Shown: positions 4,277 to 42,615 of the stretch, piece by piece | Layout of the letters: each line of letters opens with the position of its first letter | Numbering within the stretch: position 1 is the stretch's first letter | Origin: Takakia lepidozioides | Lineage: Eukaryota; Plantae; Bryophyta | Direction: 5' to 3' | DNA length: 64,000 bases | Assembly (NCBI GenBank): GCA_030704615.1 | Contig: CM060731.1 | Span: 8,370,001 to 8,434,000 of the forward strand | Translations under genes and position numbers: made by a program | The notes under the pieces: model-generated | Told to the model about the DNA's origin: nothing | Databases searched by the model: none | The model's input: only the letters and a program-made list of their open reading frames with translations

Positions 4277-5128
4277 TATACATACTCACCTCCCAACCGC
4301 TGGTTATCTATTTGCTCTACTTTGCAAAATACCCTGTGTGTGGTTATGTATACCTACTAACCGGGGTGGTAACCGACTCACTAACCGGGGTAGAGTGTTA
4401 TACCCGGCCAACACTGGTCTATTCCCACCTCCCTATTGGTGGCTCCTACCATCCCTATTTCCTTGACCTTCAAACGAGTTACGTGCTAGGATAATTATCC
4501 CTATAAGTATGTTTGTATTTTTTAATTTTTATATTTAATGAAACATAACAATATTATTTCAAAGTCTTGAAAGAACTATTGAGAACCGAGATGCACACGG
4601 TACCCAGCAGTCCATGGTGAAGGGAATTCTAGCTCCACAACCCCTTTTTTATTTCTTCTTCCCATATATTCTTTAAAAAACAATTGTAACACAAAGGCAA
4701 AGAAGTACCCCTATTTTTTTTATAGATATAATTTTGATAATACCACTGTGACAACCCTTTGTTAAAATTAAATATTTTAAAATCTTTATTTTCAAGAGTT
4801 TATTGGACTCTATGTTTTATCGCACATGGTTTGAAATTCATGCCGAGTGACTTCCCCTAGGCTATGTTGCACCCTCGATGAAAATGCCATACATGGACCG
4901 GGGAAAAAAAATCCAAAACGTGAGACCCGCTAAACATTGCTAAGCACCTTCTATCGACCAAACATGGTAAAAAAGAAAAGTTTTATGGAAATCCGATGGA
5001 AAAATCTAATCAGCTTTATTCTTTGGATGAAAACACGATGATATGAATGAATAGTATCCATGTGGAACGCGATCGACAAGTCGTGGAGCGCACCTTGTGG
5101 AACTGGTTGTACATATAGACTCGCGCAA

Positions 5129-5440
5129 TGTCAAGTTATTTTACCACTAGTGTGAAGTTAGCTAGGAAATAGCTAGCTTTTATATATTGACATTTGGGAT
5201 TGACCCAAGTGTCAATCTAGGGGCCAATACATGTTTGGGCACCTGGCATTGTTATCTTCACGGCAGATCGCGGTGGGCTCATCTTTCTCGAGTTGAGCCT
5301 CACCGCGTCTAGCTATGGCGCCGTAGTGTGGATTCCCCATGGCGTGCACTTGGCTCCACTTAATATATGAGTGATGTTTTCATGTGCGAGTGTGTGAGTT
5401 TGAGAGAGCTTGTATGCTTGTATTATTCTTTTCCTTATCA
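5129..5440 (+). repeat. Left terminal repeat B1 (3' part of the LTR only)
   Basis: 312 bp, from tgtcaag to ttccttatca. Matches 15593-15909 with about 14 substitutions and one 5-bp indel by manual count. Confidence 0.95.
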
Positions 5441-5452
5441 CTCGAGAAAGAT
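5441..5452 (+). promoter_or_regulatory. Self-complementary primer-binding site (Tf1-like self-priming)
   Basis: ctcgagaaagat lies directly after the LTR-terminal CA and is the exact reverse complement of atctttctcgag at 5281-5292. There is no TGG-starting tRNA PBS. Confidence 0.75.
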
Positions 5453-8175
5453 CAGCTCGAGTCTGTGAGTGCCAGGTTCGAGTTAGTTGTAGCACTTGTG
5501 TTTTCAGATCATGAGAAGCGGTTCAACCTAGAGTGCAGGGAGCCGTGCATGAGCCTATCCAAAGCGGATAGAGTGCAAAGGCAAACATGTTGCAGGTTTG
5601 CCATGGATAGAGAGGCGGGTAGCCTATGTTGAAGAGCGGCGTTGCATAGCTCAACGCTATGGCAACCAAGTTTGGGCTTCTAGTGTGAAGCGGAGGAGAT
5701 GCTGGCCATGAGTGGACGAACTGGTGGTCGTCTTCTTCAGCTGCAGGCCGAGTTAAGGAGCTGCTGAAATGTGGGTTGCGCATGGGAAGTTAGCATGTTG
5801 CAGGTTGGAGATGATATGATCAGCTCCAAGTATGTGCCAGAAACGAGTTGTTGCGGATAGATGAGGAGCAGTCGAATGGCGGAGCTGCGAGGGGATGCAT
5901 CGCAACCTATTGGGAGCTGCAGCTCCAACCTCATGAAGAGGTATGAGTGAAGAGAGGGGGCTGGTCCCTCTTGTGTGCAAATCAGTGCACTTGTGAAGTA
6001 TTGCTTGAGTTGGAAGTTTCAATCTGAAACTCTAGCACGGCGAGGGCTCTTGGAGTGGCAAGAGCGGGGCTGGAAGGTTAGCAGTGAGGCGTCCTAGAGC
6101 CAGGGAATGTGCAGTAGAACTGCAGGTACACCAAGTTTATCAAGGTGTGTATTTTCAGATTCACTTTTGTGAGTTTCGTGGAGAAATGGAGCTTGTTGGG
6201 CAACATATAGCTTGCTTGTTGAGTTGGGGGCACTTCTAGTGGGCCGTGAGAGCTCAGGAGTGCAGGGCGACGGGGCTGATGGCTTCACAGAAGCCATAGC
6301 TCAGCGGCAGCAGATGCAGGAGCAAACCCCAGCTCGGGGAGAGCTCGGGAACGCGTGGGAATGTCGGGAACGCCAGGAACGCCTCGGGAACGCATGGGAA
6401 CTCGTTGGGAGTTCCAGGGAACGCAAGGAATAGTGGCCGTGATGGACCGTTGGGGCGGTATCACGAGATACCACGAGCCCAGATCGTGATGGTTGACCGT
6501 GACCGTTGACCTTGACCGTTGGAAGCCGTTGTGCGGACACAACGGGTTGGCACGGTGACCAGATCGTGGGAATGGCGGGCCGTGAAGGCTCATGGGAGTG
6601 GTACTACGGGGTATCACTGGGCAGCCCGTGGCCAACGAGCGCCTAGGGCGGGCCGTGAGGAGTAGTGGCGGTTGGAGCCACGGAAGGCCGCGAACAGTTA
6701 GAGTGAAAAATAAAAATAAATAAAATAAAATAAATCTTTTTTCACTCGTTTCGTGGGACCTTGATGGGGAGGCTGGGCTCTGAAGAACAACGGTTTTGAG
6801 CTAGCTGATCCGGCAGAAAAGTCGGAATTGCCTCCCTGTTATGTTTTAACAAAAGGGATTACTTCCCTACAAGTAATCTTTTCGGGTTTTCAGCCCAATT
6901 CTTAATTATGGGGAAGACCAGCCTGCAGGTAATTCCTTTGGACAGAATGTTGTTGGGGCCTATATGTACCTCTATTTGCTCCATTTTTGAACCTTCAGTG
7001 AACGGTGTGGTTTCCTGAGGTGGTTCCATTCGGAGGAATGGCTGGTGGACGTAAGGAGGCACTGGCGGACCCTGTGGAGGCTTGCATGGGGCCTTGGAGG
7101 CCAAGTTTCATGAGTTCGTGGAGGGCGGTTTGAGGAGTGTCTACAGGATGCTCTCATGGTCATGCAAATGAGAGAAGAGAGGAAAAAAGAGGGTGTTGGG
7201 ATGAGAGCGTGCTTGGGATAGGCATTGCTTTAGCTTCTCTTCCTCGTAGCTTTCCACCTTCTCTATAGGGCGAGACCTTTCTGTAGGTGGAGGCAAGAGT
7301 CAGTCCGGGTTTGGGCTAGGTTGCAGGAGCGACACTGTGGAGTTGTTTTTGGTGTGGGGGAGTTGTTGTTTTCATTCTTGTGTTTGGATCCCCTCCACAC
7401 CCGCATGCTTGATTGTGCGCCATGCTAGTTTTGTGTGGGCGCTTGATTTTATAGGTGGTGGACTCGGGCTTGATCGCCGATCCCACCCTAGAGCATGCTG
7501 TCGATGGTGAGGCTGGGGTGATGACTAGTCAGACCATCTTTGTTTCTCCTATGGTGAGGTTGGAGGTGATGACCAGCCAACCATAGGAGTACCTGCGGTG
7601 GATGCAGGTGCAGGTACAGGCTATGTTAGGAACCTAGCATTCCAAACCATAAGCCGCATCAGGTTCTCTACCCGGTTACCTTATGGAGAGGGGGTTAGAG
7701 ACAGGTTCATGACCGGTTGAGTGCCACTTTGTCAACACGGAGGTGCCACTAATTGCTGGGGAAAGTGCCGGTACGAGCACTAACGATATTAGCGAGTATA
7801 CGAGACGAGGTGTGCGGTTTAGGCCACCTTCACCTCCTGTGTCTTCTACGGAAGGTTCTGATTCGGATTGTGAATCAGAAGGACTCACACCGGCGGTGCA
7901 AGTTGTTTCCTTGCCATTGTTGTGGGACACGATGGAGGAGATGTATGGAGCCACCAAGGGGCGACGAAGGTACTCTGGGGCGGTGGGCACCATTGAGTTG
8001 GATGATTTTATCTAAGAGTTTGATAGTTGGTGTGACTTGCAGCAAATGCGCAATCCACAACTGTTTACGCCTTTCATGGCATGGAAAGGGCTGTTTCAGC
8101 ACCTTGAGGGGCCGCCCATGGTTGATTACCATGAGTTTAGGGGGGGGGCACGATGCTGAGATCAAGGAGTGAAGG

Positions 8176-9945
8176 ATGTACTGGTCACCCGACTATGTCT
8201 CCATCACTAGAGGCACTAGAGGCACAAGGGCAGCAGCCACACCGGCAGCTTCACCAGCAGCAGCAGCTACAACAATAGCTTCCACGAGCACTAGTGAGAC
8301 TAGTGGTACAACAACTACAACGTCCACCCAAGCTATTGCTGCACCAGCACCAGTGGCAGTGTCTGCATTCAACCCTGTTGTGGAGTTCTTCAAAGAGTTG
8401 AGAATGAACTACCAAGGGGTGAGGACAGAGAAGTTGAGGAGCTTGCAAGAGTTCCAACGGAAGCCTATTCAGAGCTTGAGGGAGGCTTTCACTCGCGTTA
8501 CGGAGGCTCAGGCAGTCCAGTTCTGGTACAAGATATTGGACAAGGAGCTGAAGGGAAGGGTGCGAGATGCAACTCTCCTACAAGCGGCCCAACCCACCTT
8601 AGCAAATGTGTTTTTGCTGGTAGAGTGGATAGAACTCAACATGGTGGAGGAATGAGTGGTCATGGTGGGATTTGCTAAGGAGGCACCACGGGGTAGTGGT
8701 GCTCCTAGCCAGCCACTACCTCAACGTGCTCAAGGCAGCAAGGGGGCTCTGGTGAAGCCCAGGGAAGGGCAGAGAGGACCTCAGATGCAGGGGTCTCTCC
8801 CTTCATTTGCTGGCCAACAACGGACGGATGTGGTGTGTTGGACATGTGGAGGACCCCATGTCAAGAAGGATTGCCCAGAGGGAGGCAATGATTTGGCACC
8901 GGCACAGCCTGCACAGGTGCAGTGTGGGCATTGTGGTAGGTACGGGCATGGAGAGGCCCAGTGCTATGGTTTGCACCCTGAGTTGCGCCCAGGCCAGTTC
9001 CAAGGGAACAATGGTGGTCGGGGGCAAGGTGGAGCAGCCCAGAGAGGACGAGGTGCAGGCCAAAGGCAAGCTCAACATGGCCAAGGACGCGGAGGTCAGG
9101 GTGGTGACCAAGGCATGGCCAACCGGCTTCAGCAGCTAGAGCAGAGGCTCGCTGCCATGGCCACAGCTCAGGTGATACCGGCTCCAAGGCTGGATGGTCC
9201 ACCTCCTGCTCCTGAAGGAGGAGACTTAGGAGGCATGGGATTCATGTGCGGGGCAGCACTACCACTAGTAAGGGGTGTCATTACCACTACCACTATGGGT
9301 GGGGCACCACTACCACTGGTGAGGGGTGCCACTACCACTACCACTTTGGGTGGGGCACCACTACCACTAGTGCCGGGCAGTACTACCACTACCACTATGT
9401 GCGGGGCAGGACTACCACTAGTGCAAGTGGAGTCAGTTGCGGCAGTGACTGGAGGAGCAGCACGAGTTCCTGAGCCACGGGGTGCGGAGGTGTAGTTGGA
9501 TCCACAGCGTGGGGAGGTAAGCCGTTAGGCCAGGCTTCCTCAGTCATTCACATTGGCGGAGACAGTGTCGACGCCGTCCATGGGACCTAGTTCCCGCCCG
9601 ACTGTTACTGAGGCGGAGGTTACTATGCCATTGGTGAGAGCTACACGGGCAGCACCACTACCTAGTGTTGCCAAGGCTACGGTAGCTAGTGTGCTGCTGG
9701 GGGCGGCCACAGCTGTGTGCCAGGCTCCATTGTTCTCGACTACCATGATTGCGACGCCGGGGGTAAGACCAGCTGAGGTGTTCAGGCTGGCAGCGACACT
9801 CTGTGAGAGTGTGGAGGTTACTTCATCTTCTGCGGAGATAGTGGGAGGTGTAGTGCCGGAGGGATCCTCGGATGTGAGGGGTCAAGACTGCCATGGCGGC
9901 GCCATGGCAAGCTGCAGCTGCCAGGTTGATGGAGCTGTCAGCTAG
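8176..9945 (+). pseudogene. gag: Gag with two CCHC zinc knuckles (interrupted by stops)
   Basis: One frame across ORFs 8176, 8656 and 9553. Gag-core-like EKLRSLQEFQRKPIQSLREAFTR, knuckles CWTCGGPHVKKDC and CGHCGRYGHGEAQC, and an RGG/Q-rich region. Confidence 0.85.
9244..9424 (+). repeat. In-frame 51-bp tandem repeat (~3.5 copies, 17 aa)
   Basis: Units start at 9244, 9295, 9346 and 9397: MCGAALPLVRGVITTTT / MGGAPLPLVRGATTTTT / LGGAPLPLVPGSTTTTT / MCGAGLPLV. Confidence 0.9.
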
Positions 9946-10405
9946 GCCAGCCATTGAGCGCGCCATGGTGACACCTGGAGTTGTCATGTTAGACAACCAG
10001 GATGGCATTTTCTGTTTGAGTGGACCGGCAGGCAAGAGGTACCGGCCACTGCGGGTCTTGTTGGACTCGGGAGCTCAGCCATTGATGCTGGGCAGAGCTG
10101 CTATTGCAGGCTTGGGCCTCACGGAGGTGGATATAGAGCCGTGTCTTTTCCAGATACAGACATCTCTGGGAGGATCAGAGCAGGCTCGGGGCATGACACG
10201 ACGTGAGTTGGCTATCAGACTACAGCCGGATCATCCTACAGATGGCTCAGTGATGAGAGCCAAGGCCATTGTGACAGACGCGGTCTCGTACGATGTCCTT
10301 GTTGGTGGGGCAGTGTTGTACCCCATGGGCTTCACCCTGGATTTTTGGGAGGAGTCAGCTTTATATAGGCATGGATGGCAGTCAGGGGAGGGCCGGCTTG
10401 TGTAG
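9893..10405 (+). pseudogene. Retropepsin aspartic protease domain of Pol
   Basis: RVLLDSGAQPLM catalytic D-S-G motif and the C-terminal YDVLVG motif. Confidence 0.9.
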
Positions 10406-10780
10406 CTCCCGGTGACATTCATAGGAGGAGTTGCGGTTGCCCAACGAGGCAAGATGTCACTGGCAGCATTCACAACTGCAGTGACTTGGCCTGGAGAGTT
10501 GTTGGATGGCAACACTCATTCAGAGGATGTGTCACCTCCGGGAGAGCATGATGACATGTATGGTATGGCGGAGTTGCCTGCCATGGTTGCTCACACTCCA
10601 TTGTGGGGCTCGAGCAAGGATTTGCAGCGGGTTGCTGATTGTCGTGTGTAACAAGCCTGGGTAGAGGCTTTTGTACCGTCAGGAGAGGACGACAGTGCGG
10701 GGATTGCACCAGGTCCACCTCAATTGTCACCATTGGACACCACACCGATCATGTGGCAGTGTCCGGATGAAGGCATTTGC

Positions 10781-11740
10781 CTTCTGGACTTGTTTGGCGG
10801 GATCAGCATCGGATTGGCTGCTGTTCTACAGGCAGGTGTACGGGTACGGCGTTACCTGTATGTAGAGAGGGATGAGACTGCACGACGCGTCTCCCTACGC
10901 CATGTTGCTCAGTCGGTGCAGCAGTACCCTGAGTTGTTGCCGGTGTCTGCAGTTCGTGGATATCAGCAGGCCTTGCCAGGAGACATTTCGTTGCTGGGGG
11001 CGCAGGATTTGGAGTGGGTTGGCTCCATTGATTTGGTAGTGGCAGGTTGGCCCTGCCAAGGGTATTCATCAGCCGGGCATGGCAATGGATTGCGAGACTC
11101 GAGGTCGGGTCTACTTTGGGAGATGGTGCGGGTTTTGTGCCACTTACAGCTTCATCAAGTTGTATCTCCACAATACATCTTGGAGAATGTGCCACTGATG
11201 GACAATTTTCGGGCCAAGGTGATGGCCAGTGTGCATCAAGTCCGGTCGTGGCTTGGGTCAGCAGTGTTGCTGGATGCAGCTGTAGTGGGGTCACGGGCTC
11301 ATCGTCCACAGTTATGGTGGACTAACTTGATGCCACCCGCACTGCTTAAACGTGCATTTGATGGGGTGTAGTGGCCAGCATACCTCACAGTGGATAGCAT
11401 TTTGGACACAGGGAGGCAGTCTTAGCGTGTGAGACACGATGACCGTTCGCCTTTGGCAGTGGTCAACAAGGTGGGTCGACCACGAGCAGCACTATCTACA
11501 CTGTTCAGCTTCCCAGGATTGCATGCTTTCCGGGATAGCGGACCTGGCCTCCTGTGGGATGCTCAGTTGCAGCAGTTAGTGGAGCCTAATGCCGACGAGC
11601 GAGAGCGGGCTATGGGTTTTTCCACTGGGACCACAACGGTGTCTTCTCTTTCTAAGGCATCACGTCGTCAAGTGTTGGGGCAAGCGATGGATCTAAATTG
11701 CTTGACCTGGATTATCAGCTTGGCTATGGCTGAGCAACGT
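10781..11740 (+). pseudogene. DNMT3-like C5 cytosine DNA methyltransferase domain inside Pol
   Basis: Motif I LLDLFGGIS, II YLYVERD, IV IDLVVAGWPCQ (PC at 11051-11056), VI YILENV (11183), VIII RAHRPQLWWTNL (DNMT3 AHRARYFWGNL-like), IX ERERAMGF (11597), X RRQVLGQAMD (11663). Same frame as PR and the RT N-terminus. In-frame TAG stops at 11369 and 11423. Confidence 0.93.
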
Positions 11741-12129
11741 AGAGTGCAGAGTGCACTTCCCTTGACGGTCTCTCTACCTACCGAGATGGTACAGGCAGTG
11801 AGTAGGGGCGAGCCGGTGAGGACCACGGGGTGTAGACATCCATGACACACGTGGGAGGTGCTCGAGGTTCAGAGGGAGTTGGCAGCCAAGGCGGCTGTGA
11901 TGGATGAGGTTGGGGATTCTTCTCGGGTTGAGGAGGTCCTCAAGGATGATATGATGGGGCAGGATGAGGCCTTGTCATTGACTGAGCAGGCAGGGAGTAC
12001 TACTCAAGAGGTTGCGGCATAGCAACCACGGGACGCGTCCTCTACCTCTAAGTCTGCTGGACTTAAGGTTGCAGTTACGGAGGACAATTGGGAGCCTGAC
12101 AGTGGACCCATTGTCACTGGAGGAGAGAG

Positions 12130-12959
12130 ACGACGTATATGGCAGTTCCTGAGGGCTTACAAGAATTGCTTTGCCTTCAGTTTGAAGGATTTGGGAGCAC
12201 TGAAGGGTCAGGAGATTCGTATTGAGTTGGCCACAGACACGCCAATCTTTCGGAGACCCTATAGATATAGTGACATGGAGAGGTCTTTGATTCAGATGAG
12301 GACAAGATCTCTAGGAGGCTGGTTTGGTGGAGCTCTCTGGTGGAGAGTATGCTTCAACCACGGTGATGCCAGCCAAGAAGGATGTCTATGGCAATTGGAC
12401 GGAGAGACGTATGTGCGGTGATTACCGGCCTGTAAATGGTTAGACCAAGTCCGATAAGTATGCCATGCCCACACCGGAGGAGATCTTTGATGCCATTGGG
12501 CATGCCAAGGTCTTTAGCACTTTGGACTTGCGGTCCGGATATCACCAGTTGCCGATCAAGGAGGCGGACAAGCAGAAGACGACATTCTGGGGGATCAATG
12601 AGCACGGGAAGGATTGCCTATATCAGTGGCGATTCTTACCATTCGGGCTTCAGAACGCTCCTGCAGAGTTCCAGAGAGTCATGGACAGGATTCTAGTAGG
12701 GGTAGACTTTGCTCGGTGCTACATAGATGACATCATTATCTTTAGTGCTACGGTGGAGGAGCACGAGAGACACCTTCAGGTGGTGTTTGAGCGCTTGAGA
12801 GCGCACGGATTGAAATTACATCCGGGGAAGTGCAAGTTCTTCCACAACCAGATTGAGTATCTGGGCCACATGATATATCCTGGAGGATTGGGGGTGCAGC
12901 AGACTAAGGTAGAGGCCATCGCACAGATTCCACGTCCCACGAATGTGAGCCGAGTTTGA
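12130..12959 (+). pseudogene. Gypsy-type reverse transcriptase domain
   Basis: PIFRRPYR, RRMCGDYR, FSTLDLRSGYHQ, LPFGLQNAPAEFQR, YIDDIII, KCKF..YLGH. Frameshift near 12305. Confidence 0.97.
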
Positions 12960-12965
12960 GCTTTC

Positions 12966-13589
12966 ATGGGGTTGGCAAACTACTATAGACGGTTTGTCAA
13001 GGGATTTAGTGCTATTGCAAAGGCTCTAACCAAGCTGACCAAGATAGACCAGGAGTGGCAGGGGGAAGATGAGCAAGAGCGAGCTTTTCCGGAGCTCAAG
13101 GCGAGGTTGACGTCGGCGCCGATCTTGAGACGACCTATCAGGGGGCGTCCTTTTCAGGTGCATACAGATTGGAGCATGTTGGGGCTTGGAGCGGTGCTCA
13201 CACAGGTGGATGATGAGGGAAGAGAGTTCGTAGTGGCTTATGCTAGCCGCTCGAACAACGCTGCAGAGTCTAAGTATAGCTCATATGAGGGGGAGTGCTT
13301 AGCTGCAGTGTGGGCCGTGGCACACTTAAGGTGCTATCTATACGGCAATCTCTTCACCCTTGTCACGGATCACCAGCCTCTAAAGTGGTTGATGGAGTCA
13401 GACAAGCTTACGGGGAAGCTTGCACGGTGGGCACTTATACTCCAAGAGTATGACTTTCAGGTTGTGCATCGACCGGGTTTGGTCAATAGGGATGCAGATG
13501 GATTGAGTCGCAATCCATGCACGAGCCAACATGATGACACTAGAGCTCGGTGGCATGGTGAGACAGACGAGGAGATGGTGACGGGATGA
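12966..13589 (+). pseudogene. RT connection and RNase H domain
   Basis: VHTDWS..GLGAVL, YSSYEGECLAAVWA, LVTDHQPL, NRDADGLSR. Confidence 0.95.
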
Positions 13590-13844
13590 CATGCATATGC
13601 CTTTTTGTGTATCTTGGCATTAGGAGGTCAGGTTGGACCTACAACAGGGATGACTGTAGACGGAGTGTCTGAGGACCTTGAGGCTAGTGATGAGCTAGGT
13701 GGTGCTAGAAATATACATGAGGATTCGGTTGGGTTGGACTACCTCCGCACTGGAGACACGGCAGCTAGTGTGACTGCCAAGGAGAGGGATCGGATCCTAC
13801 AACGAGCCAAGAGGTTCAAGTGGGAGGGGATACACCTGCTTTGA

Positions 13845-14900
13845 GTGTGGGAGGATGGTCGGGTGAGGATCGTGCCTCACCCAACACAGCGTGCACGGTT
13901 AGTGCGGCATGCCCATGAGGAGTTGGGGCATTTTGGAGTGCGACGCACTCATAGTTTACTGCAAGGGCAGTATTGGTGGCGTGGTATGCACACAGAGGTG
14001 CAACAGTTCGTGGGTGCGTGCTTCATTTAACGCCCCTACACCACAGTTTCATCCTTTACCCATCATGGGATTGGGCTACAGGTGGAGGGCCTTTGCCACT
14101 GACGATGCGTCACCACATATATGTGTTGGTGATGGTGGAGCACTTCTCCAAGTGGATTGAGTTGGTTCCATTGCCTGACAAGGCTAGTGAGGGGGCTGCG
14201 TATGCATTCCTGGATCGTGTGCTTAGCCGATTCGGTGCTCCAGCTGAGGTACTCACGGACCAAGGGAGAGAGTTCTTGGGGGAATTTCAGGCTTTGTGTG
14301 ATAAAACCTTGATAGACCACCGTACCACTTCTCGGGATCATCCTGAGACCGATGGCTTGGCAGATAGAGTGGTGCAGACGGTGAAGAGGGGTTTGCACAA
14401 GTATGGCTTGCAAAAGGGACACCTAGGAGATTGGGATCTTCAGGTACCTTGGTTAGCCATGGGCTACAGGTTCAGCAAGCAAGCATCACTTGCCTCCTTC
14501 TCACCATATTTCCTTCTCTTTGGCCAAGAGCCGGATTTGCCTGCATCTATTCGCAGGGAGGCTGCAATAGTCCTCAACCTTGATGATCGGGATGTGTGGA
14601 CACAAGCATGTGCCCAGCGAGTCATGCCTATGGCTTTTGAGAATCTTGCTATTGCCCAACACCAAGACACATTGAGGTATGCCACTATACGTGGAGGGGG
14701 ATATCGGCCAAGTGTTCGGCGTTTCCACCCTGGGGACTATGTGTATCTGCAGCAGACAGTGCCTACGACCTTGGATGTCACAGCAGGACGTGTGATTCTA
14801 AGGGTCAGGGAGGTGTTACCTTCAGGAGTGTTGATTCTGGAGGGTCGAGATGGCATGGTATGGAAGGATCATGTGTGCAATTGTGCGCCATGTCACCTTC
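13845..14900 (+). pseudogene. DDE integrase (HHCC zinc domain, core, C-terminal domain)
   Basis: HAHEELGHFG..YWWRGM..FVGAC (partly deleted), VMVEHFSKWIE, VLTDQGREF, HPETDGLADRVVQTVK, FSPYFLLFG, FHPGDYVYL. Confidence 0.93.
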
Positions 14901-14956
14901 TACATGTGGATGGGAGGATAGATCCCAACCTTGCAGTGGTACCTGCAGGATTGCGT

Positions 14957-15081
14957 TGCATGCTATGTGGGCATGCTCGTGGTGCCGCCACTATGCTGGT
15001 GTGTGATCGATGCTCAAGAGGTTGGCACATGGGATGCTTGACACCACCTCTTGAGAGGGATCCTGATTATGTCCACCTTGC
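14957..15081 (+). pseudogene. PHD finger at the integrase C-terminus
   Basis: CMLC..MLVCDRCSRGWHMGCLTPPL, completed after a small deletion or frameshift by *LCPPC (15064-15081; TGA probably from TGG). Together this gives a C4HC3 pattern. Confidence 0.88.
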
Positions 15082-15339
15082 TTGGGATAGTGGTAGTGGA
15101 TATGACTAGTGGCAGCTCACAAGACATGGGAGGCCAAGCTCATAGGAGTCAATACCCAAGATCTCAGGCTCAAGTTCACAGGTTGCAAGACGGCGACTAA
15201 TGATTGGGCAACTCTTGTACCCGGCCTCTTGATCTATTGAGTTTGAGTGTAGTAGGGACAATGGTGGAGGACCTAGTGAGGCTATGACCACTATTACATC
15301 TTGTGGCTACCTGGACTTAGAGGGACCTAAGCGCCAGCT

Positions 15340-15350
15340 AGGGGGGCGAT
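15340..15350 (+). promoter_or_regulatory. Polypurine tract
   Basis: aggggggcgat immediately before the TG that starts the LTR. Confidence 0.7.
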
Positions 15351-15909
15351 TGTGATGGACTAGTGGCTGCACTAGTGGTGGCTAGTGGCAGCCTAGTGGT
15401 TGGACTAGTGGCAGCACTAGTGGTGGCTAGTGGCAGCCTAATGGTTGACTAGTGGCTGCACTAGTGGTGACTAGTGGTTGTCTAGTGGCAGCCTAGTGGT
15501 GCACTAGTGATAGACTAGTGTTTGGTGTACACATATGTTGTGTGGTTTGGATAGCGATGTAGTTGTGTAGCGATATGTATGCGCACGACAGCTGTCAAGC
15601 TATTTTACCACTAGTGTGAAGTTAGCTAGGAAATAGCTAGCTTTTATATATTGACATTTGAGATTGACCCAAGTGTCAATCCAGGGGCCAATACATGTTT
15701 GGGCACCTGACGTTGTTATCTTCACGGCAGATCGCGGTGGGCTCATCTTTCTCGAGTTGAGCCTCACCGCGTTTAGCTTAGGCGCTGTAGTGTGGATTCT
15801 CCATGGCGTGGGGTGCACTTGGCTCGACTTAATATATGAGTGATGTTTTCATGTGCGAGTGTGAGAGTTTGAGAGAGCTTGTATACTTGTATCATTCTTT
15901 TCCTTATCA
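15351..15909 (+). repeat. Complete LTR (A+B, TG...CA, 559 bp)
   Basis: Starts tgtgat after the PPT and ends ttatca. A is a ctagtgg array. The A/B boundary is gaca-gc-tgtc at 15587-15596. Confidence 0.9.
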
Positions 15910-15910
15910 T

Positions 15911-16197
15911 TGTGATGGACTGGTGGCAGCCTAGTGATGGACTAGTGGCTGCACTAGTGGTGACTAGTGACAGCCTAGTGGTGGACTAGTGGCTGCACTA
16001 GTGGTTGGACTAGTGGCTGCACTAGTGGTGGCTAGTGGCAGCCTAGTGGTTGGACTAGTGGCTGCACATAGTGGTGACTAGTGGTTGTCTAGTGGCAGCC
16101 TAGTGGTGCACTAGTGATAGACTAGTGTTTGGTGTGCACATATGTTGTGTGGTTTGGACATCGATGTAGTTGTGTAGCGATATGTATGCGCACGACA
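15911..16197 (+). repeat. Right terminal repeat A2 (5' part of the LTR only)
   Basis: Matches 15351-15590 with ~47 bp of extra array units and ends at gcgcacgaca. Confidence 0.93.
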
Positions 16198-18006
16198 ACA
16201 ATAAGGTAAGAAACTGTAGGTGAAAAATCCACAACAGCAAATTAGGGTTCCAATATTTCTGAAGGTCGGAAAAAAAAAAAATATCAATGGAGTGGCCAAC
16301 GGGGAGGGAGGCCACTAGTTGGAATGGATGAGATGTGAGGCCATGTGTAGATGAGAGCATAGAAGTAGGATACATGAGGTGGCGGGGGCGGTGGCCCTTT
16401 CTCTAGAGTTTTCCAAAAAAGTAGGAGGCGGTGGGGCCCCCTTCTACAAAGCTCCACCACCGTCCTCATAGAGTATATAAAAGAGGGTGAGGGTTGGGTG
16501 AGGGCTACCTTCTACACGACTTCTTCCGCTCAACCTTACTTTGGTAGGCTCTACTGCAATCAAGGCCCTTTGAAAATGTAAATTGAAACCTGAACCATCT
16601 TTAAATGAATAGAAACATCAAATGTCTGTTGTGGGATTTGCTTTTCAGACATTGACACGATGGTCCATCGCTTTGGTCACAAGTCTAGTGTGAACATTGT
16701 AGCTCATTTGAAATAACTTCAATTTTTGAGTAAAAACGCTTCAATTTCAACAAATAAAAATACCAAAGTTAATTGAGAATACAGAGGCAACTTATTTAGT
16801 GTTGGGGTTGTTAAAATCGTCAAACAAAGTCTCTCCATTGACTCTCCATGAAAAAAAATCTTTATGCACATTCTTTGTTGTTGTTTTCAGCTCCTTGAGC
16901 GGATCTCTATCAACAAGATTGTTCTACACACAAATTTGAAGATAGAACAAGAAAAAGACCAATTAATCAGTATTTATCACCCTTTTTGGGATTTCAAAAC
17001 CAAATCGTTAATGACCTATGAGTGGCACATAGTGACAGGATGATTTAAACATTGGGCTATTTTGGATAACTGACAGTGTTTAAATTAGACAATATTACAA
17101 ATTGTTATGACATGACAAATGTGATATAGAAGAAACTCTTGTGTGTCTAGTGCCTGAGCTGCTCTATATTCATCAAGATTTTGAAATTGGATTATGGAAT
17201 TGAAGTGGGTGCGGCTATAAGCTTTGGTAAACTTGTTGACTTTTTTGGAAAACTCTGCATCCCATAGCCCCATCAATTTTGTGGTGGGCAAATAATATTT
17301 CCTAAGGTAGAAGACCTTTGTCCATCACAAGAATTGGGCTTGAGATGGTAAGAAAAAAATGCAACATCTCTTAATGGGGTTGCATAAGATTTTTTGTTTG
17401 TTTGTTTGTTTGTTTGTTTATTTATTTTAGAATAGTTTACTGTAAATTGCTGAGAGGACCTTATAACAGTACATGTTGTTTTATAGGGTTTCAAAGTCTA
17501 TACGTTATAAAATTTTGTCTCATATTGTTGGAGTTTAAGGTGATTTTCAAATGGTGCCAATGCAATACTAATTTAAAGAGTTGCATGAAATGAGACAAGT
17601 ATGTTGAAGATCAATGAAATATTTAATCTTTGTACTAAAATGTATGAAAAATAGAATATGCCTAAATATCAATTTGCTTATAGAAGAATATTTAACTAAA
17701 CTCACCATTTTATAATTCATGAACATGTACCATTGCTTTGGGAGCTTGCTTTCGTGGCCCCCAAATCAGCTGTATCTCTGTTATTTATACTATTAGAGAC
17801 ACTAGAATTCTTTGTTTGTTGGTTCCTCAAGCATCCATAGATGCCGATGGTGATTTGTGGTGTAGAATCCACAGTGGGAAGCATGAAAACCAAAGAGCCG
17901 CTTCTAAATAGTATTATGTCCATGGCTTAAGCTCCCAAGCCCTTCAGTTGTCTTAGGGTCGTCCTTGCAAGATCTTTTAATCCATTCTGTCTTTGGTTCC
18001 CTATAG

Positions 18007-21415: not shown

Positions 21416-23994
21416 ATGGCGTACCAGTACCAGTACCCGCCGGCCGGGAGTGGACAGTGGAGCTCGGGCATCTGCGGATGTTTTCAGGATTTTGAATCGT
21501 GTAAGTGAACTGAGGGGTTTCCCTCCTCTCTCGCTGTCTCTCTCCATACATTTCATAGTTAGGAGTAAGAAAAGAAGCTTCCCATGGGCAACTGCAGATA
21601 CCACATTCTTGTTTCTCTATATCCGCAATGCATTTGGACTTCACTTGTGGATCGGAGCTTCTGGGTTCTTACAACCCCCCACCTTCTAGTTCCTTCGCCC
21701 TCTGGCTAGTAGCTGCGTGCAGGGAGAAAACTGCGATCGTGAATATATGTGGTTTGAGGATCGCATGTCTTTGAATGGTGCCACCGTATGGAGTGTCGAG
21801 CTATTTCTCGGAACCATTCTGCCGCACCATGAATATCCCGTCCACCCTGGAAACTCAAAACTGAAGAGTGTTGAGTGGACTTCGCAACCATCGGCCGACC
21901 AATACATGAAACGAGAAATGAACATGTACAAATGGTTTCTACAGATTACAGAATGAGAGATTTTAAGCACAGTTTAATGTTACGAATCTCTTCCAGAAAC
22001 AAGATTGATAGAGCTAGTGTAGATTGCTGATATCCCCTACCCATTGCGGATCGTGTGCCCTCTCCCTTCACCAGTTTAGAGTACCTTGTACCACTGACAG
22101 TGACAACTCCTAGTAGTGTGACGTGTTCAGCAACCGCAGAAAGCACTTTGCATGGGACTTGGGCAATTTTGGGTAGTACACACCAAAGTTCCTGAATTAG
22201 GGAAAGAATGGGGAAAGAAACCTGGACTTGCCATCCAGGGTAGGGGTTAAATTTGAAAGACATCTTAAGGCGTGTAGCTGCCCTGAAGCTGATGGGAAAC
22301 CAAAAAATTAGCCTTTTTCTTAAACATGGAACCCGATATTTAGACTTTGTTAGCAATTTCGTCAATGAGCCAAGCTTTGGTGCTGCTTTGGGTTATGCAA
22401 GGAACTCCCAATAAATGGCTGACTCCTCTTTCATTAGCATACAAGCCTGTCACAAATGCAGCTCCTCGTTCTTTCACAATTGAAGTGGAATCTGACAAGA
22501 TGTTAGAGGGTTCATATGGTAGAACTACTCTTCTTATGTTATATTTGTATGAGGTTTAAAGGGCGTTGTTTTGAATTACCCTTGGAATGATGGATAATTT
22601 ATTAGCATGCCTTTTGCATGGCAACATTGCAACAGGCTTCTTCCTTCTTTCTGCAGTGCGGTTTGCAGTTATGCTGGTATATGAAGGTCAAAATGGCTCT
22701 TCAAGGCCATGGAAGGGTGTCAGGCTTACCCCTGATCCATAGGTGAATTGATCCGCCAACGCAGTTCTAAATGGATTGGAACCCACGGGAATTCTCCCCT
22801 AGTACATTTGATTCCCAAATGAGTGACTCCTTGTTGTTTGGCTCAACTCAATATCCTCTGAATGGGTGGGCAGGTATGTGTGCTTGGTGCTGTCCATGCG
22901 TACTTGTTGGACAAATTGCGGAAATCGTTGACCAAGGCGCCACTTGTACGTGCTCTCCGTCTCTTCTCCTTGCTCTCTTGTTCCTCTGGCTCATTTTCAC
23001 AACCCAGAATTGCAGGCCAATGTCGACCTAAATTTGTTATAATTATCTGTTGTATTTTAACCATCTGGTCTTTCACCAACATTTTGTGGGCATTTACTAC
23101 TTGACTGTATCCATGACATTTGGCACTCCATGCACCACCATTCACCACATTTGCCAAACTTCTCTTATTTCACCTACATACCTTGGATCATGCATGTGAT
23201 GACTTGTGTGGCCAGTCTCCATTCCTTACAAGAGTGCACATGGTGTGGGGTGCCTGAAACAGCATGTGGAAGTGCTGGAGCCATCTATGCACTGCTGACT
23301 ATCTTCACAGGCTGTGGATGTCTGTATTCATGTGGCTTCCGAGCCAAGCTGCGCCATAAGTACGGCCTTCCTTTGCAACCATGTGGCGATGTCTGCACTG
23401 AATGGTGCTGCACATGCTGCTCCCTTGCCCAACAATATAGGGAGCTCAACTCACGTGGCATTAATCCAGTCCTTGGTATGTTTACAGGCTCTACTGGCTC
23501 TACTTCCCTGTTTCTTGTTGTTCTCAACTCCTGTGGTGTCAATCCGGTCCTTGGTATAAGGGATAAAGGAGCAAGAGCCCCTGTTAATATTGAAGAGTCG
23601 AGAAGGAACTTGAGCGGACATAGACCAAGATGGTTGTGATTGTTTCCTAGTCAGCCACTTATTTCTTTGCATACATATGTTTTATGTCTGATAGCTCAGG
23701 ATTTGGGGAAGTTCCATTAGGTTGAAGGAATGAAGGCCTAGACTTTTCTTATTCTTTTCCCTCCACTAGATGTGTAACTGGGTTGACAAGTGGACCAGTG
23801 GTCCCTGGAGTACTGTACAAATATTACATTCATAGAAAATTTAGCCAGATCATGCATCTACCTCACGGTTCCATCTTTTCTGTGTGTGGTTTGCCATTGA
23901 CCCCAATGATAACCTTTTGTATTATGCAGGATATGAGGCCAATAAAGCTACATACGAGACCCAGGCACCACCTATGCAAAAAATGTATGGATGA
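21416..23994 (+). CDS. PLAC8-domain protein (Plant Cadmium Resistance / Cell Number Regulator, fw2.2-like), 144 aa, 4 exons
   Basis: Exons 21416-21500, 22874-22945, 23263-23475 and 23930-23994, all GT-AG, 435 nt in total. Motifs WSSGICGCFQD, WCCPCVLVGQIAEIVDQG, RAKLRHKYGL, CCSLAQQYREL. Confidence 0.93.
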
Positions 23995-28906: not shown

Positions 28907-30452
28907 TTTTTTGTTTTTTTTTGTTTTTTTAGTTCACATTTTTTTTTTTTTTTTTTTTCTTTTGAAGAGGGGCGGAGGCCTCAGAATTTTATAAATAAAG
29001 GACATGAAAGTCCGAAAAATACAATAGGGCGAAATAACGGCGATGAACATAACAGAAAGAGATCACTACGAGAGAACCAAAAGGGAAAAATAACCTCTTT
29101 CAAGGGTGCCCTGGAGGCTGATCCAGGAAAGCTCTGCTTCGTGACCAACCAACCAAAGAGGGGGAAAAAAAGCAAACAGAACGATCTGTCGCCCCATAGA
29201 AGAGTCTCTAAGAGAGGCTAGGCCTTCAAGCCGTGGAATCGCAGATTAAAACTAGCATAGAAGCTAAGAAGCCACTGGCTGCAGTAGCAAAGAGGTGGTA
29301 ATGCTAGGGCAGAACGAAGAGTAATATAACCAGCCTGCTGCATCAGTAGTTCCCGCGGTTCTTTTTGTAAGTAACAAAAGAGAGGTGAGTCCTAGATCTG
29401 GTGGATCGAAGAGAATGGTGGTGCCTCCAATTTATTTCTAAATCGTCCTTCTCAACAAGTGAAGGTTGGGAGCTAAAGGAACTCCCAGCTTGGAGGGATG
29501 GAGTCCTTCCAGTGAATTCCAGTCCCTGCTGAATCTCTAGTGTAGATGGTGGCTCCTTTTCCCCAAGTGTCGTCGAATTTGGTGAGTAGCTGAGTCCCCT
29601 TTCTGCCCTCACACCTGCGAAGAGCTATTCCCAACACCCGCCACGCCCTACGGGCCTCAGACAACAGGTCTGAGTGAACCAGACAAAGAATCACTCTTAC
29701 ACTGCAAGGCCTCCCAACAAAGACATTGGCACATCTGCCCACAATTTACCCTGCAAGAAATTTAAAAACAGAATGGAAGGGCAAGGCATTGGAAGCTGTT
29801 TCCATTGGCTATAGAAAGCCAGGACCTGCACCCAAACAACAGCAACAAGAGGGCATTCAAACAGACAGTGTTCTAATGATTCCGAAGCCTGTAGCCCACA
29901 AGAAGTACATAACATGGAGCCATCCGAGATGTGAGCTTTGACAGGAAGGATTGTATTGACCAATTTCCATAAGAAACCAGTGATTTTAGAAGCCTTGTCC
30001 TTCTTCCAGACGTCACCCCAGATAACAAAGATCACAAAGGGACAGTCAGAAATGTAAGACCATTTCAAGGTCCATTTGGCATCCAGAGAGGAGGTTTTTT
30101 TGAGAAGGGAAGACCCCAGCTTTACCAAATATTTAAAAAAGGGGGTGCTCTTTCTATCATCCCAATTCCATTCGACTGGATCGAATTGAAGGAGTGAAAC
30201 TGGAGCTCGAAGGAACCATACAAGGAAGGGGTTTGTATGTCTACCCTGATCCAGCGAAGGATTTACCTCCCCCGTCGCCATGCAAATTACACGGATGGCA
30301 TAGCATTTGATCTCTTCAAGTTCACACAGAAGAGGGAAGGTTAGGGCACCCGAATCCTTAACCTGGAAACTCCATCCTTGGATTTGGTTTCTCTCCTTGG
30401 AGTTCTTTTCATTTTTCGTTTCAATTTCATATGACAAAATTGTGTGAAAGGT
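28907..30452 (-). mobile_element. 5'-truncated L1-type LINE (ORF2 C-terminus, 3'UTR, poly(A))
   Basis: ORF 29697-30455 carries a zf-RVT signature FLWKLV..LP..CTSCG..ESLEHCLFECP..VW. A poly(T) tract at 28907-28963 is the tail on the minus strand. Confidence 0.85.
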
Positions 30453-30723
30453 CAAAAATCTGTCAACCTGTCATGTGAAAGGCATTTTCTTAAAGTTGTA
30501 TGTCACAGTGGAAGTCAAAAAAAAAATTTAACCTGTCACAAAAAAGGTAGGGCTACCTGTCCAAAACATCACTAAAGTCTACTAGGTAGTGATCTCTTAA
30601 ATAGTCTCTACACAGGCTTCCCTGAAATTAAACAAGCCATGTGAGGTTGTCCTATGTAAGTTAGACCTTGTTGCCCTCAGGTTGACCGGAAGCTCAACGA
30701 GGTCAATTGGAGCTCGGCTGGGT

Positions 30724-36654: not shown

Positions 36655-37233
36655 AACAGAAAAGGCTGTGGTTGTTTGTCATCGTCCACCGCATCATTGG
36701 ATTTTTCTCCACAAGGGTCGAATTTGTGTAGTAGCCACGACGTGGATAGTGTCTCCATCGATGGCAGTTGGTTACCAATTTTCTGCGAAAAATTGTTGGA
36801 GGCCTCTCACAAGCTCTGTTGCTTCTTTTTGATAGTCTACGGATGGATGTCATAGCTTCGATTAATCCGGCTCATGATCTGAGTTGTTGGCGGATACTTT
36901 GACAAGGGAAAATTAACAGTCGAAGATTAATGGAGAGAAGATGTCCAACAGAAAAGGCTGTGGTTGTTTGTCATCGTCCACCGCATCATTGGATTTTTCT
37001 TGACAAGGGTCGAATTTGTGTAGTAGCCACGACGTGGATAGTGTCTCCATCGATGGCAGTTGGTTACCAATTTTCTGCAAAAAATTGTTGGAGGCCTCTC
37101 ACAAGCTCTGTTGCTTCTTTTTGATAGTCTACGGATGGATGTCATAGCTTCGATTAATCCGGCTCATGATCTGAGTTGTTGGCGGATACTTTGACAAGGG
37201 AAAATTAACAGTAGAAGATTAATGGAGAGAAGA
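36655..37233. repeat. Recent tandem duplication, 292-bp period
   Basis: 36655-36941 and 36947-37233 differ at only a few positions. Confidence 0.95.
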
Positions 37234-39452: not shown

Positions 39453-42400
39453 ATGGAGTCAAGGAGTTATCCCTATTTCGATCCGGAGTATGAGACAAGC
39501 GGCTTCCGATCCAACCCTCCACGGTACGCACAGCTATGATGCATCGAGGGTGTGAGCATGTGTTTCAGACAATTGGTAGTATGCATACACTGGGTATCTG
39601 GAAATAGAGCAGGAACGGGGCAAAACGTAGTCGGGCAGAGAGTACATCCGGTGTAGGCAGTCGAGCAGCTCCTCACTCTCCTTATCGTCCTCATCAATTA
39701 TGTCTTGCCTCAAACATGCGACTTCAAGGAGAGTGCCTGGGATTGGGGGAACAATTTTCCTCCGTTCCTGGTCAAACTTCCTGCTGGTCATTCTCATTTC
39801 TAGTTGGGTGCGCGGAAAGAAGATACGGAGAGAGCGGAACTCATAACCACGCGATATAAACTTTTGCTGTAATGTCGTGCCCTCGAGGGATTAGTAACTG
39901 GAAGGATGCCAAGCCTGCCCGAGGTCGTGGTGGGGTTGAAATCTACCAGGACACGACTAGATGCCCTACCTTTAGTTCATTCTTCCAGCGAGATAGTGAC
40001 ACTCCCCTTGCCGGTTTTGGTTTTTCAGCCCACCATGGTACGAGATCTAGCTGGCACGACCAAATATCTAGTTGCAAGAAGTTGAGTGTTGGTTGTTACT
40101 GCTGTTTTGGACCGTGTGCTAGGAAGAGTGAGGTTGCTCTAGGCGAGCAAGAGAGAAAGATAGAGAGAGAGAGACACAGACGTGTGTAAGCCTTAGTCCG
40201 TTCAGCTGTGCCCTACTCACTCGCTCTGCATGTTCTGGGGCTCTTCTGTCGTCTCGTTCCCTTGGCGTATATATGTTTAGTTATTGAGTAATACTATGGT
40301 CTAACGCCAATCGAACCTGCTCTGACTGTGCAGGATTGTAATAGACAACGGATCCTATGAAGACGCTACTCTCGTGAAGGTAACACTCTCTTCCTATTCC
40401 TGAACCGCTGTAGCTATGAACGACTCAGAAGGTTGAGTTTCAAGTGTTGGGCAGTATAATGGCTACAAGGTGGTGCAGCAATCTCATTTTCTGCCTCCAT
40501 GTTGTGATGCAGGTAGACAGCGCCAACATTCACGGGATTTTGCTTGACGTGGTGCAAGTTCTGTCAGATCTCGAGCTGATCATCTCAAAAGCGCATATTT
40601 CATATGATGTGGGATGGTTCATGGATGGTGAGGTCTTGTTGCCGAGCTTTTGTTGTGAGAAGTCTTTAGGCCATTCTCTGATTGTTCGTGATTGTAGATG
40701 TGTGCCTCCTTAATTTTTGCATCTCGAGTATGTTGCAGGCTTGGAGGAATTCCCTTGAGTTTTAAGTTTTTGTTTTCTTTTGGCTGCAGTTTTCCATGTC
40801 ACAGATCAGTGCGGCAGGAAAATCAATGACGAATCAACCATTTGCTACATTCAACAGGTTAGTTTCCTCCACGCCATTTGTAGACTAGATTGCTCTCTGT
40901 GTTCTAATGCAGCTCAGGCTTTGCACTTCCAAGTTTCCCATATGTCCAACAACGACTAACTCTAGGTGTTTTTCTTGCCAGACATTGGGAGCCAAGAAAA
41001 AACCATCATCCTCAAATGATCTATTGAAGTGCCCAGGAAGGTCTGTTGGGGTGAAATCTGTTGCTGAACACACAATCATAGAGCTTACAGGAAAAGACAG
41101 ACCAGGGCTTCTGTCAGAGGTATCAGCAGTACTTGCACACCTGAAGTGCAATGTGTATGCTGCGGAGGTTTGGACCCACAACTTGAGAGTGGCATGTGTG
41201 GTTTATGTCACCGATGAAGAAACTGGTGGGCCAGTAAATGACCTGAAGAAACTGGATCGCATTCGAGAACTTCTAAGCAAAGTGATGGGGGCCACAATGA
41301 ACTTGGCCGATGGAATAACACACACAGAGAGACGACTGCATCAGATGATGTTTGCTGACAGAGACTATGAAGGGAGTGACCAACCAGCCATGCCAAGGCT
41401 GCCAAACAACAAGGGGAAGCCCATCATTACGGTGCACAACTGTAGTGAGAGAGGCTACTCACTCATCAACGTTCAGTGTGCTGATCGACCAAAGCTGCTT
41501 TTTGACACTGTTTGTACTTTGACAGATATGCAATATGTGGTCTTCCACGCCACGGTTGACACTTCCGGTTCTGATGCTTTTCAGGCACTCATATACACCC
41601 TTCTCTCATGGGTCTGCTATGATTTGATTAGTAAGTCATTATGTGGTTCAACAGCTTTTGTCATACTCGATGCAATAACAAGTACCAGATGAAGATAGAG
41701 TACATCAGTCTAAGTGTGGCATTGGAGATATTTCTTGATTATCTGAGCTTTGATCACAGTGACCATCTCTCTGGCATCTCTATAGGGATCTTCACTGTAA
41801 GCCAGGGCCTTTGAGATGAGTGGAGGGACCTGTCAACCTCTTCAGGGGTTCTGATTGATTGTTGAAGTTTCTCACCTGGTAGAATGCCTTCTTGCAGGAA
41901 TATTATGTTCGCCAAATGGATGGTTGCACTCTAGATGCAGATGCCGAGGAAAGAGTAAAGAAGTGCCTAGAGGCAGCGATTGAAAGGAGATCTCCTGAGG
42001 TACTGCCTTTTGCTCATCTTGATATAGTACTGGCAAGCCAAACTGGGTAGTAATGTCATCTTTTGACTGGTGTTAAGGTAGCAGTCAGGATAGCACAGGA
42101 AAGAGCGCCTTTAAGTGCAATGTCAAAGTAACCTTTCTGTACTTAAGGACCATGAAGTATTCCAAAGCAAGAAAGTGGACAACTGAGAATCTGCAACCAT
42201 ACTTACATATCCTCCTTCTTGATGGTTGTAGGGTCTCAGATTGGAGCTCTGCACCAGTGACAGGGTGGGGCTTTTGTCAGATGTGACCCGCATCTTTCGG
42301 GAGAATGGTCTTTCAGTCACAAGAGCTGATGTCACCACACAGGGAGACAAGGCTGTCAATGTATTCTATGTCACAGATGCCTCAGGGAATCCTGTGGACA

Positions 42401-42615
42401 TGAAGATTGTTGAGGCATTGCGGAGAGAACTTGGGCAAACAATTTTGGAAGTGAAAGAAGCTCCAAGGTTTTTCAAGTCACCGACTCGGTATCCACAAGG
42501 TGGATCTAAGATGTCTTTCAGCAATTTCTTCAAATCGTCAGAGAAATTCCTCTACGGCCTTACAAACCTTGGCTTAACAAACCTTGGATGGAGGAATTCT
42601 GTTTGTGCTGCATGA
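39453..42615 (+). CDS. ACR: ACT domain repeat protein (ACR family, four ACT domains), ~462 aa, 7 coding exons
   Basis: Exons 39453-39523, 40334-40379, 40513-40627, 40790-40857, 40982-41584, 41898-41999 and 42232-42615 (1389 nt). Motifs PYFDPEYE..NPPR, VDSANIHGILLDVVQVL, GWFMDVFHVTD, DRPGLLSEV, THTERRLHQMM, DRPKLLFDTVCTLTDM, DRVGLLSDVTRIFRENGL. Intron 5 needs a GC donor. Confidence 0.93.
39545..39730 (-). pseudogene. Antisense intronic fragment paralogous to the coiled-coil exon at 53155-53420
   Basis: LEVACLRQDIIDEDDKESEELLDCL here versus LEVACLRQDIIDEYEKKSEELLEYL at 53340-53415. Confidence 0.8.

Follow-up and report, generated by a model that had tools for sequence, protein, structure and literature searches.

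A retrotransposon encoding its own DNA methyltransferase (DNMT) is present in a 64,000-nucleotide stretch of the moss Takakia lepidozioides (GCA_030704615.1, contig CM060731.1, positions 8,370,001 to 8,434,000), referred to here as the window. The element, located at 5129-16197, is a decayed Ty3/Gypsy retrotransposon of the Gypsy-Dnmt3 lineage. Its Pol polyprotein carries a DNMT3-type C5 cytosine methyltransferase between the protease (PR) and the reverse transcriptase (RT). Judging from sequence and from analogous systems, this enzyme is probably packaged together with Pol and methylates the element's own new complementary DNA (cDNA), which is predicted to go through a joined-end circle stage before integration.

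The methyltransferase domain and its family

Translation of the window shows that positions 9893-12292 form a single frame holding the protease, the C5 methyltransferase, and the start of the RT. Over these 2.4 kb, the frame contains six stops, versus 34, 35, 28, 20, and 33 in the other five frames. The protease motif LLDSG at 10058 is followed by the methyltransferase motifs I (LDLFGG, 10784), IV (GWPCQ, 11045), VI (ILENV, 11177), VIII (RAHRPQLWWTN, 11294), IX (ERERAMGF, 11597), and X (RQVLGQA, 11666), and then by LKDLG of the RT at 12182. With X at the stops, the protein matches PF00145 with an E-value of 7.1e-12 and 45.8 bits, the cut-off being 22. Membership in the C5 cytosine methyltransferases is thus given by a profile match above the cut-off together with motifs I, IV (PC), VI (ENV), VIII, IX, and X in order. 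A preliminary description of the sequence had reported all of these motifs in canonical order, in one frame with the protease and the RT N-terminus, and had proposed a PF00145 search of the stop-repaired translation as a check; the motifs and the match are both confirmed.

The copy in the window is dead, as had been recognised from the start. Besides the six stops, two of which fall within the DNMT (11369 and 11423), there are frame breaks near 9878 and 12304 and a lesion near 14013-14100. The earlier statement that the domains are separated only by point stops is correct only as far as the RT N-terminus. Beyond this point, the frame break near 12304 precedes the RT core, which is therefore out of the DNMT frame in this copy. 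Position 9893, given for the protease in the preliminary description, is not a real start, as gag lies upstream, in another frame here.

Solved structures were ranked using the window domain and a 14-sequence profile. DNMT3A came first with 46.8 bits, followed by DNMT3B/C (39-40) and DRM (24), while HaeIII/HhaI (21-23) and DNMT2 (18-20) ranked lower; DNMT1 was not among the solved-structure matches listed. An alignment-based structure model of L018, a natural stop-free sister copy, has a predicted local distance difference test (pLDDT) score of 96.6. It aligns to DNMT3A/B over 274 residues with a Z-score of 29.6 and a root mean square deviation of 2.5, compared with Z-scores of 26.1 for a bacterial CpG methyltransferase and 24.5 for M.HhaI. 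The domain is classed as DNMT3-type on the basis that DNMT3A/B are the closest solved sequences and the closest folds to the model, the accompanying tree being one without host plant or animal DNMT3. The host plant DNMT3s PpDNMT3a/b have in common with it the DNMT3-type domain and the canonical, unrearranged motif order, but bear a C-terminal DUF3444 (Yaari et al. 2019, PMC6453930), for which no Pfam match was found on the window protein. Host DNMT3 did not appear among the protein-search matches to the window DNMT.

A protein search returned 44 relatives, with best identities of 57-72%, from Calypogeia fissa, Marchantia polymorpha (many gene models), and Sphagnum fallax, Closterium being more distant among them. 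A metagenome scan gave 99 confirmed loci, of which 80 were retained; several of these represent one insertion seen twice. These loci are Sphagnum-like, with a median ungapped identity of 80% to an S. fallax model versus 62% to Marchantia. They were collected via DNMT motifs I and VIII, so DNMT-less sisters cannot show up and these two motifs are not independent evidence. With the window included, the order PR-DNMT-RT is found in all 35 loci containing the three domains, and a shared frame in 56 of 67 cases for PR-DNMT, 28 of 41 for DNMT-RT, and 28 of 47 for gag-PR. As the domain pairs are mostly in a common frame, gag, PR, DNMT, and RT fit one gag-pol open reading frame (ORF).

The catalytic cysteine is kept in 71 of the 72 loci covering it, and the glutamate of ENV in 67 of 72. 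An alignment of more divergent relatives (52 rows) retains the cysteine in 50 (two gaps), the ENV glutamate in 51, and both arginines of motif VIII in 50. Variants in the same rows are C for F in motif I (9 rows) and E for P in motif IV (16 rows).

An abundant family carrying the DNMT is present in the host. In run X1, summed contig depth is 828k-930k over the DNMT and 819k-942k over the RT. In four runs with host DNA, depth over the DNMT resembles that over the RT and is thousands of times that of the flank, a value which is not a copy number. No clean removal of the DNMT was found among the contig joints listed (15 of 309), two spanning joints with sides of 21 nt being doubtful. In viral contigs, 69 pattern matches gave no confirmed relative. 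The sequencing runs listed as containing matching sequence include none of RNA, which says nothing about expression.

Comparing the window with the loci gives a median nonsynonymous divergence (dN) of 0.26 for the DNMT (77 pairs), while synonymous divergence (dS) is saturated in 37 pairs and 2.6 in the rest, for a ratio of about 0.1; at saturation such values are only approximate, and the pairs lack independence. The corresponding dN values are 0.375 for PR, 0.40 for gag, and 0.176 for RT. This rough comparison between lineages indicates purifying selection on the DNMT. The domain, described at the outset as integral to Pol, is a family-wide DNMT3-type component in a land plant.

Relation to algal elements and age of the capture

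KnitGypsy-Dnmt3 of the alga Klebsormidium nitens contains a Dnmt3 inside a Gypsy Pol, with a ratio of nonsynonymous to synonymous substitution rates (Ka/Ks) below 0.2 and DIRS-like repeats (PMC5890265). Its domain gave no methylation in yeast, a result called inconclusive by the authors, and the acquisition was placed "in the K. nitens lineage" in the text of that study. The K. nitens protein GAQ93235.1 is colinear with the window across PR and DNMT (29% of 576 aa, E-value 3e-55).

A wider protein search yielded 220 clusters at an E-value of 1e-30 or better. Sorted by the place of the DNMT, 190 proteins comprise 41 with the domain after PR, 85 with the domain after RNase H (RH) and/or before the integrase (IN), 6 with the domain before RT (no protease detected), and 58 consisting of the DNMT alone. 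The named members with the order RH-DNMT-IN are chlorophytes, namely Scenedesmus, Monoraphidium, Haematococcus, and Cymbomonas (proteins P0186, P0347, P0375, P0424, and others). One further protein, P0350, is a full RT-RH-IN-PHD polyprotein with the same DNMT labelled as a bacterial metagenome-assembled genome, and is likely algal DNA in the bin.

The DNMT tree comprises 50 rows, of which 43 are green Gypsy elements, 4 phage, and 3 other eukaryotes. All green Gypsy rows, including K. nitens, form one side of the tree (support 100/99), with the dinoflagellate DNMTs outside. The window groups with liverwort and Sphagnum-like rows in a clade of 10 (100/100). The 16 RH-DNMT-IN rows form a clade (100/99) nested among PR-DNMT rows and hence point to a later move within Pol. 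This tree, made up without host DNMT3, suggests one old capture of the DNMT followed by that move. Since the domain is common to the elements of Klebsormidium, Closterium, and chlorophytes, the capture likely predates land plants. Instead of an acquisition in "the K. nitens lineage", there would then likely be a single event of much greater age in green plants. The preliminary description was right that the element resides in a land plant, but its hint that the domain stems from a land-plant host DNMT3 finds no support in this distribution. A recent phage donor is not indicated, because the four phage outgroup rows fall outside the clade; the 388 phage DNMT records all show less than 60% identity, and 23-31% among the 15 listed.

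The bryophyte elements may alternatively have spread horizontally rather than by descent from an algal ancestor, a minority possibility which deserves some weight. Identity between moss and liverwort DNMTs is 60-72%, the window DNMT showing 70% identity to Calypogeia, 69% to Marchantia, and mostly 55-67% to Sphagnum-like loci, and the internal forks of the otherwise firmly supported bryophyte clade (100/100) are open. However, synonymous divergence of the window from the loci has reached saturation, and in the DNMT tree Klebsormidium and Closterium fall outside the bryophyte clade, in line with the position of their hosts. Horizontal transfer would leave the argument on function unchanged.

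This kind of element was already published in 2018, and mosses, liverworts, Closterium, and chlorophytes broaden its range as far as the literature was searched. There, no description was found of Gypsy-Dnmt3 in embryophytes or in Closterium, or of the chlorophyte order RH-DNMT-IN; the main supplement of PMC5890265 may list more taxa. In the text available, PMC12344493 and bioRxiv 10.64898/2026.05.21.726589 place Gypsy-DNMT3 only in "streptophytes", citing the 2018 study.

Element structure, ends, and surroundings

The element has the layout A1-coding-PPT-B1-A2-B2, where PPT is the polypurine tract, and starts with TGTC and finishes with GACA (Table 1). The order PR-RT-RH-IN, the DDE integrase, the PPT, and the target-site duplication (TSD) are those of Ty3/Gypsy, whereas two full long terminal repeats (LTRs) at the insert ends are not found, as the ends lie inside the LTR. 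Among distinct loci, 15 of 19 5' ends start with TGTC and 11 of 14 3' ends finish with GACA, the other three finishing with AACA. The B1/A2 junction is a perfect palindrome in three of six loci, with transitions only in the rest. Elements with both ends available (seven, the window included) show a perfect 4-bp duplication in five cases and one G/A mismatch in two, the chance of a perfect 4-mer duplication being about 0.004 each.

Because the PPT lies before B1, the LTRs made by the RT should each comprise B and A. The segment following A1 has its complement inside A, over 12 nt in the window and over 16 nt of different sequence in two loci, and the RT is predicted from this pairing to be self-primed rather than tRNA-primed. 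At the A2/B2 junction, two of six distinct loci (L040/L056 and L053) are irregular, with extra bases from the primer-site or PPT side, as expected of end joining. Taken together, the ends and junctions suggest insertion from a joined-end circle that the integrase opens at the palindrome between B1 and A2. In the literature searched, with subscription papers mostly outside, no description was found of an internal att palindrome with a 4-bp target duplication.

Two further forms of insert were observed. Inserts with A-coding-B only (L005, L007, L012, L026, L029, L038/L061, L048, and L057, three of them with target duplications) may represent double cuts or one-LTR forms, or may result from recombination or from collapse in the assembly. 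In L011 (6343-6455) and L014 (8602-8714), an inverted 3' end of the same family (B plus PPT) occupies the expected place of A1, upstream of gag.

Table 1. Features of the Gypsy-Dnmt3 element in the window (window coordinates).
Feature	Position	Strand	Basis or remark
Left TSD	5125..5128	+	4 bp, one G/A mismatch to right copy; 4-bp duplications in relatives
Repeat A1, element 5' end, starts TGTC; likely promoter-R-U5 part of LTR	5129..5440	+	94% to A2, Kimura two-parameter distance (K2P) 0.047
Candidate self-primer, 12 nt complementary to 5441-5452	5281..5292	+	Control maximum 7 nt
Primer-binding position, without tRNA-site TGG; self-priming type	5441..5452	+	Sequence after A1
Long leader, no ORF >90 aa on + strand	5453..7925	+	ORF scan
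gag, broken; two Cys/His knuckle-like motifs at 8836 and 8923	7926..9878	+	Matches relatives' N-termini
Aspartic protease, LLDSG at 10058	9941..10420	+	Motif, match to relatives
DNMT3-like C5 cytosine methyltransferase, two in-frame stops	10760..11740	+	PF00145, structure ranking, model
Reverse transcriptase, frame break near 12304, YIDD at 12720	12182..12900	+	RVT_1, E-value 2.5e-31
RNase H	13143..13500	+	RT_RNaseH, E-value 1e-35
DDE integrase (H2C2 + rve), broken near 14013-14100	13815..14890	+	Pfam
PHD finger, integrase C-terminus	14930..15070	+	PF00628, E-value 4.4e-7
PPT, directly before B1	15337..15350	+	Likewise in relatives
Repeat B1, contains ~22-nt tandem units	15351..15590	+	Repeat comparison
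Internal palindrome GACA-GC-TGTC, B1/A2 junction	15587..15596	.	Halves match the element's two outer ends
Repeat A2	15593..15909	+	Repeat comparison with A1
Repeat B2, element 3' end, ends GACA; A2/B2 join resembles LTR-LTR junction	15910..16197	+	K2P 0.030 to B1
Right TSD	16198..16201	+	Comparison with left copy

Neither gag nor the protease of this copy has a Pfam match; Asp_protease_2 / gag-asp_proteas was matched on the relatives P0018, P0020, and P0039. A DDE integrase is found instead of a DIRS-type tyrosine recombinase, and the leader contains no long ORF on the + strand, no recombinase-profile search of the leader having been made. At the integrase C-terminus, Pfam matched the PHD finger and no chromodomain. 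tRNA genes are absent from the window. The divergence between the repeats, for both A and B, indicates an old insert; a moss substitution rate would put its age in the range of a few million years.

Part of the leader (5751-7001) has a summed contig depth about 20-30 times below that of the coding region and may be subfamily-specific. The gag interior contains three 51-nt tandem units at 9245-9423, and the number of the ~22-nt tandem units of repeat B (15312-16073) differs between B1 and B2.

Elsewhere in the window, an intron-containing host gene of the ACT-domain (ACR) type lies at 39453-42612 (+). In a tree of 42 rows in which Sphagnum is the only moss, it joins three Sphagnum proteins in one group (100/99), to the exclusion of Marchantia and Riccia. 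Host exons of a PLAC8-family gene (23061-23636, +) and of VPS11 (47052-47462, -) were also located, along with a LINE-type zf-RVT fragment (29700-30470, -), a DDE_Tnp_1_7 transposase fragment (59578-60153, +), and a recent tandem duplication of about 290 bp at 36655-37233, whose copies are 98.6% identical.

Proposed role of the methyltransferase and comparison with known systems

In the proposed mechanism, the gag-pol polyprotein, cut by its protease, would place the DNMT in the particle beside the RT. As a part of gag-pol entering the particle, the DNMT would be the first to meet the new cDNA. The dUTPase of some retroviruses offers an analogy. The RT, self-primed and PPT-primed, would make an ordinary [BA]-coding-[BA] cDNA, the ends of which would be joined at A2/B2. 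The DDE integrase would then cut the palindrome inside the LTR, resulting in a permuted insert. Meanwhile, the DNMT would mark the cDNA, probably at CG, so that it would enter the genome already resembling methylated host DNA. Marking at CG appears the most likely role because the SymbioDIRS-Dnmt3 enzymes of the dinoflagellate Symbiodinium methylate CG de novo in yeast (PMC5890265).

Several observations weigh against this account. Membership in the DNMT3 clade rests on the ranking against the PDB and the placement made in 2018, as the DNMT tree contained no host DNMT3, and the K. nitens relative was inactive in yeast, albeit in an assay its authors called inconclusive (PMC5890265). Only 9 of 19 elements show at least 9 nt of complementarity where it is expected, with control maxima of 7-10 nt. 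B is upstream in none of the 19 distinct 5' ends, although A-B-A-coding-B inserts should also arise from a circle cut at random, and 8 of 15 distinct 3' ends belong to inserts that stop after A-coding-B; both findings could reflect recombination, double cutting, or the collapse of short reads. Compared with one another, the loci give dN/dS ratios of about 0.6 (DNMT), 0.69 (PR), and 0.43 (RT), and only 3 of 59 full-length DNMTs lack stops, a pattern to be expected of inserts in decay. Because the loci themselves decay at about 0.6, the selection signal is that of the saturated comparison between lineages.

The DNMT could instead act at or after integration together with the PHD-bearing integrase, methylating the target or the insert, damping expression, and limiting harm to the host. 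The PHD finger fits such a role, as does the position of the chlorophyte DNMT directly before the integrase (the 85 of 190 proteins noted above), and self-limiting and target-chromatin effects are among the options in the text of de Mendoza et al. (PMC5890265). In the PR-DNMT-RT group, however, RT and RH separate the DNMT from the integrase, and streptophyte hosts silence such inserts themselves, as seen from CHG/CHH methylation on KnitGypsy copies (PMC5890265). Action at or after integration is considered unlikely.

Another reading links the DNMT more closely to the circle. The elements would form an ancient green-plant Gypsy clade, from chlorophytes to mosses and liverworts, that normally integrates from a palindrome-cut, joined-end circle and has kept the DNMT for that route. 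Methylation might then protect the circle or pick which of the two identical palindromes is cut by the integrase, a self-marking role that might resemble restriction-modification inside an LTR retroelement. LINE-borne DNMTs indicate that a DNMT does not need circles. This coupling is regarded as quite unlikely.

It is distinctly improbable that the domain persists for binding nucleic acid or modifying RNA and not for methylating DNA. The yeast result for K. nitens and the variants in motifs I and IV among the divergent rows would agree with such a role. On the other hand, the catalytic cysteine, the ENV glutamate, and both motif VIII arginines persist in 50-51 of these 52 rows, and fold and sequence are nearest to DNMT3, not DNMT2. 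A one-off insertion or the neutral hitch-hiking of a host DNMT3 retrocopy, both named beforehand as speaking against an integral domain, is highly improbable even though the copy is broken and the DNMT-based collection of loci would hide DNMT-less sisters, as relatives in liverworts, Sphagnum, Closterium, and Klebsormidium share the position and frame of the DNMT, purifying selection is seen between lineages in the rough estimate, the DUF3444 of host plant DNMT3s (PMC6453930) is not matched, and the DNMT and the RT have similar contig depth.

The 2018 study left the role of retrotransposon DNMTs open, its Gypsy example coming from an alga that has few copies and whose enzyme was inactive in yeast. 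As the lineage is very abundant in a moss and has many gene models in the model plant Marchantia polymorpha, both the role of the enzyme and the permuted ends become testable. Copies can be mistaken for host DNMT3 genes, and Pfam often misses the DNMT of this family, PF00145 being listed for 28 of 114 matches. LTR finders built on the presence of a full LTR at either end would likely misplace the boundaries of such elements.

With KnitGypsy-Dnmt3, the moss element shares an intronless, unrearranged Dnmt3-type domain in a Gypsy Pol under purifying selection, the repeats A-coding-B-A-B, and a colinear PR-DNMT (PMC5890265). The host differs (an alga there, a moss here, where the family is very abundant), and DNMT identity is only 37%. 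The att palindrome, the TSD, and self-priming are described here, and no such account was found in the text of PMC5890265. SymbioDIRS-Dnmt3 likewise has a Dnmt3-type domain in Pol and split direct repeats, but DIRS elements use a tyrosine recombinase, whereas the moss element has 4-bp target duplications and a DDE integrase carrying a PHD finger. EpiLTRs/DAM-LTRs are also Gypsy-like and combine a methyltransferase with a chromatin-reader domain. Their DNMT is sister to DNMT4, is joined by DAM and a chromodomain, and is considered by its authors to be distinct from streptophyte Gypsy-DNMT3 (bioRxiv 10.64898/2026.05.21.726589).

The Tcn1 and Tf1-sushi chromoviruses are further Gypsy elements of mosses that lack a tRNA primer site and are predicted to be self-priming (Neumann et al. 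2019, PMC6317226). Compared without an RT tree, the window element differs from them by its PHD finger, the absence of a chromodomain, the DNMT in Pol, and permuted ends. The integrases of foamy virus and HIV-1 cleave palindromic 2-LTR circle junctions, and circles can feed integration (PMC1180852, PMC4372172). There, the palindrome is the LTR-LTR junction and the insert has normal ends, while the cut in the moss element would lie inside the LTR and produce a permuted insert, apparently as the regular route.

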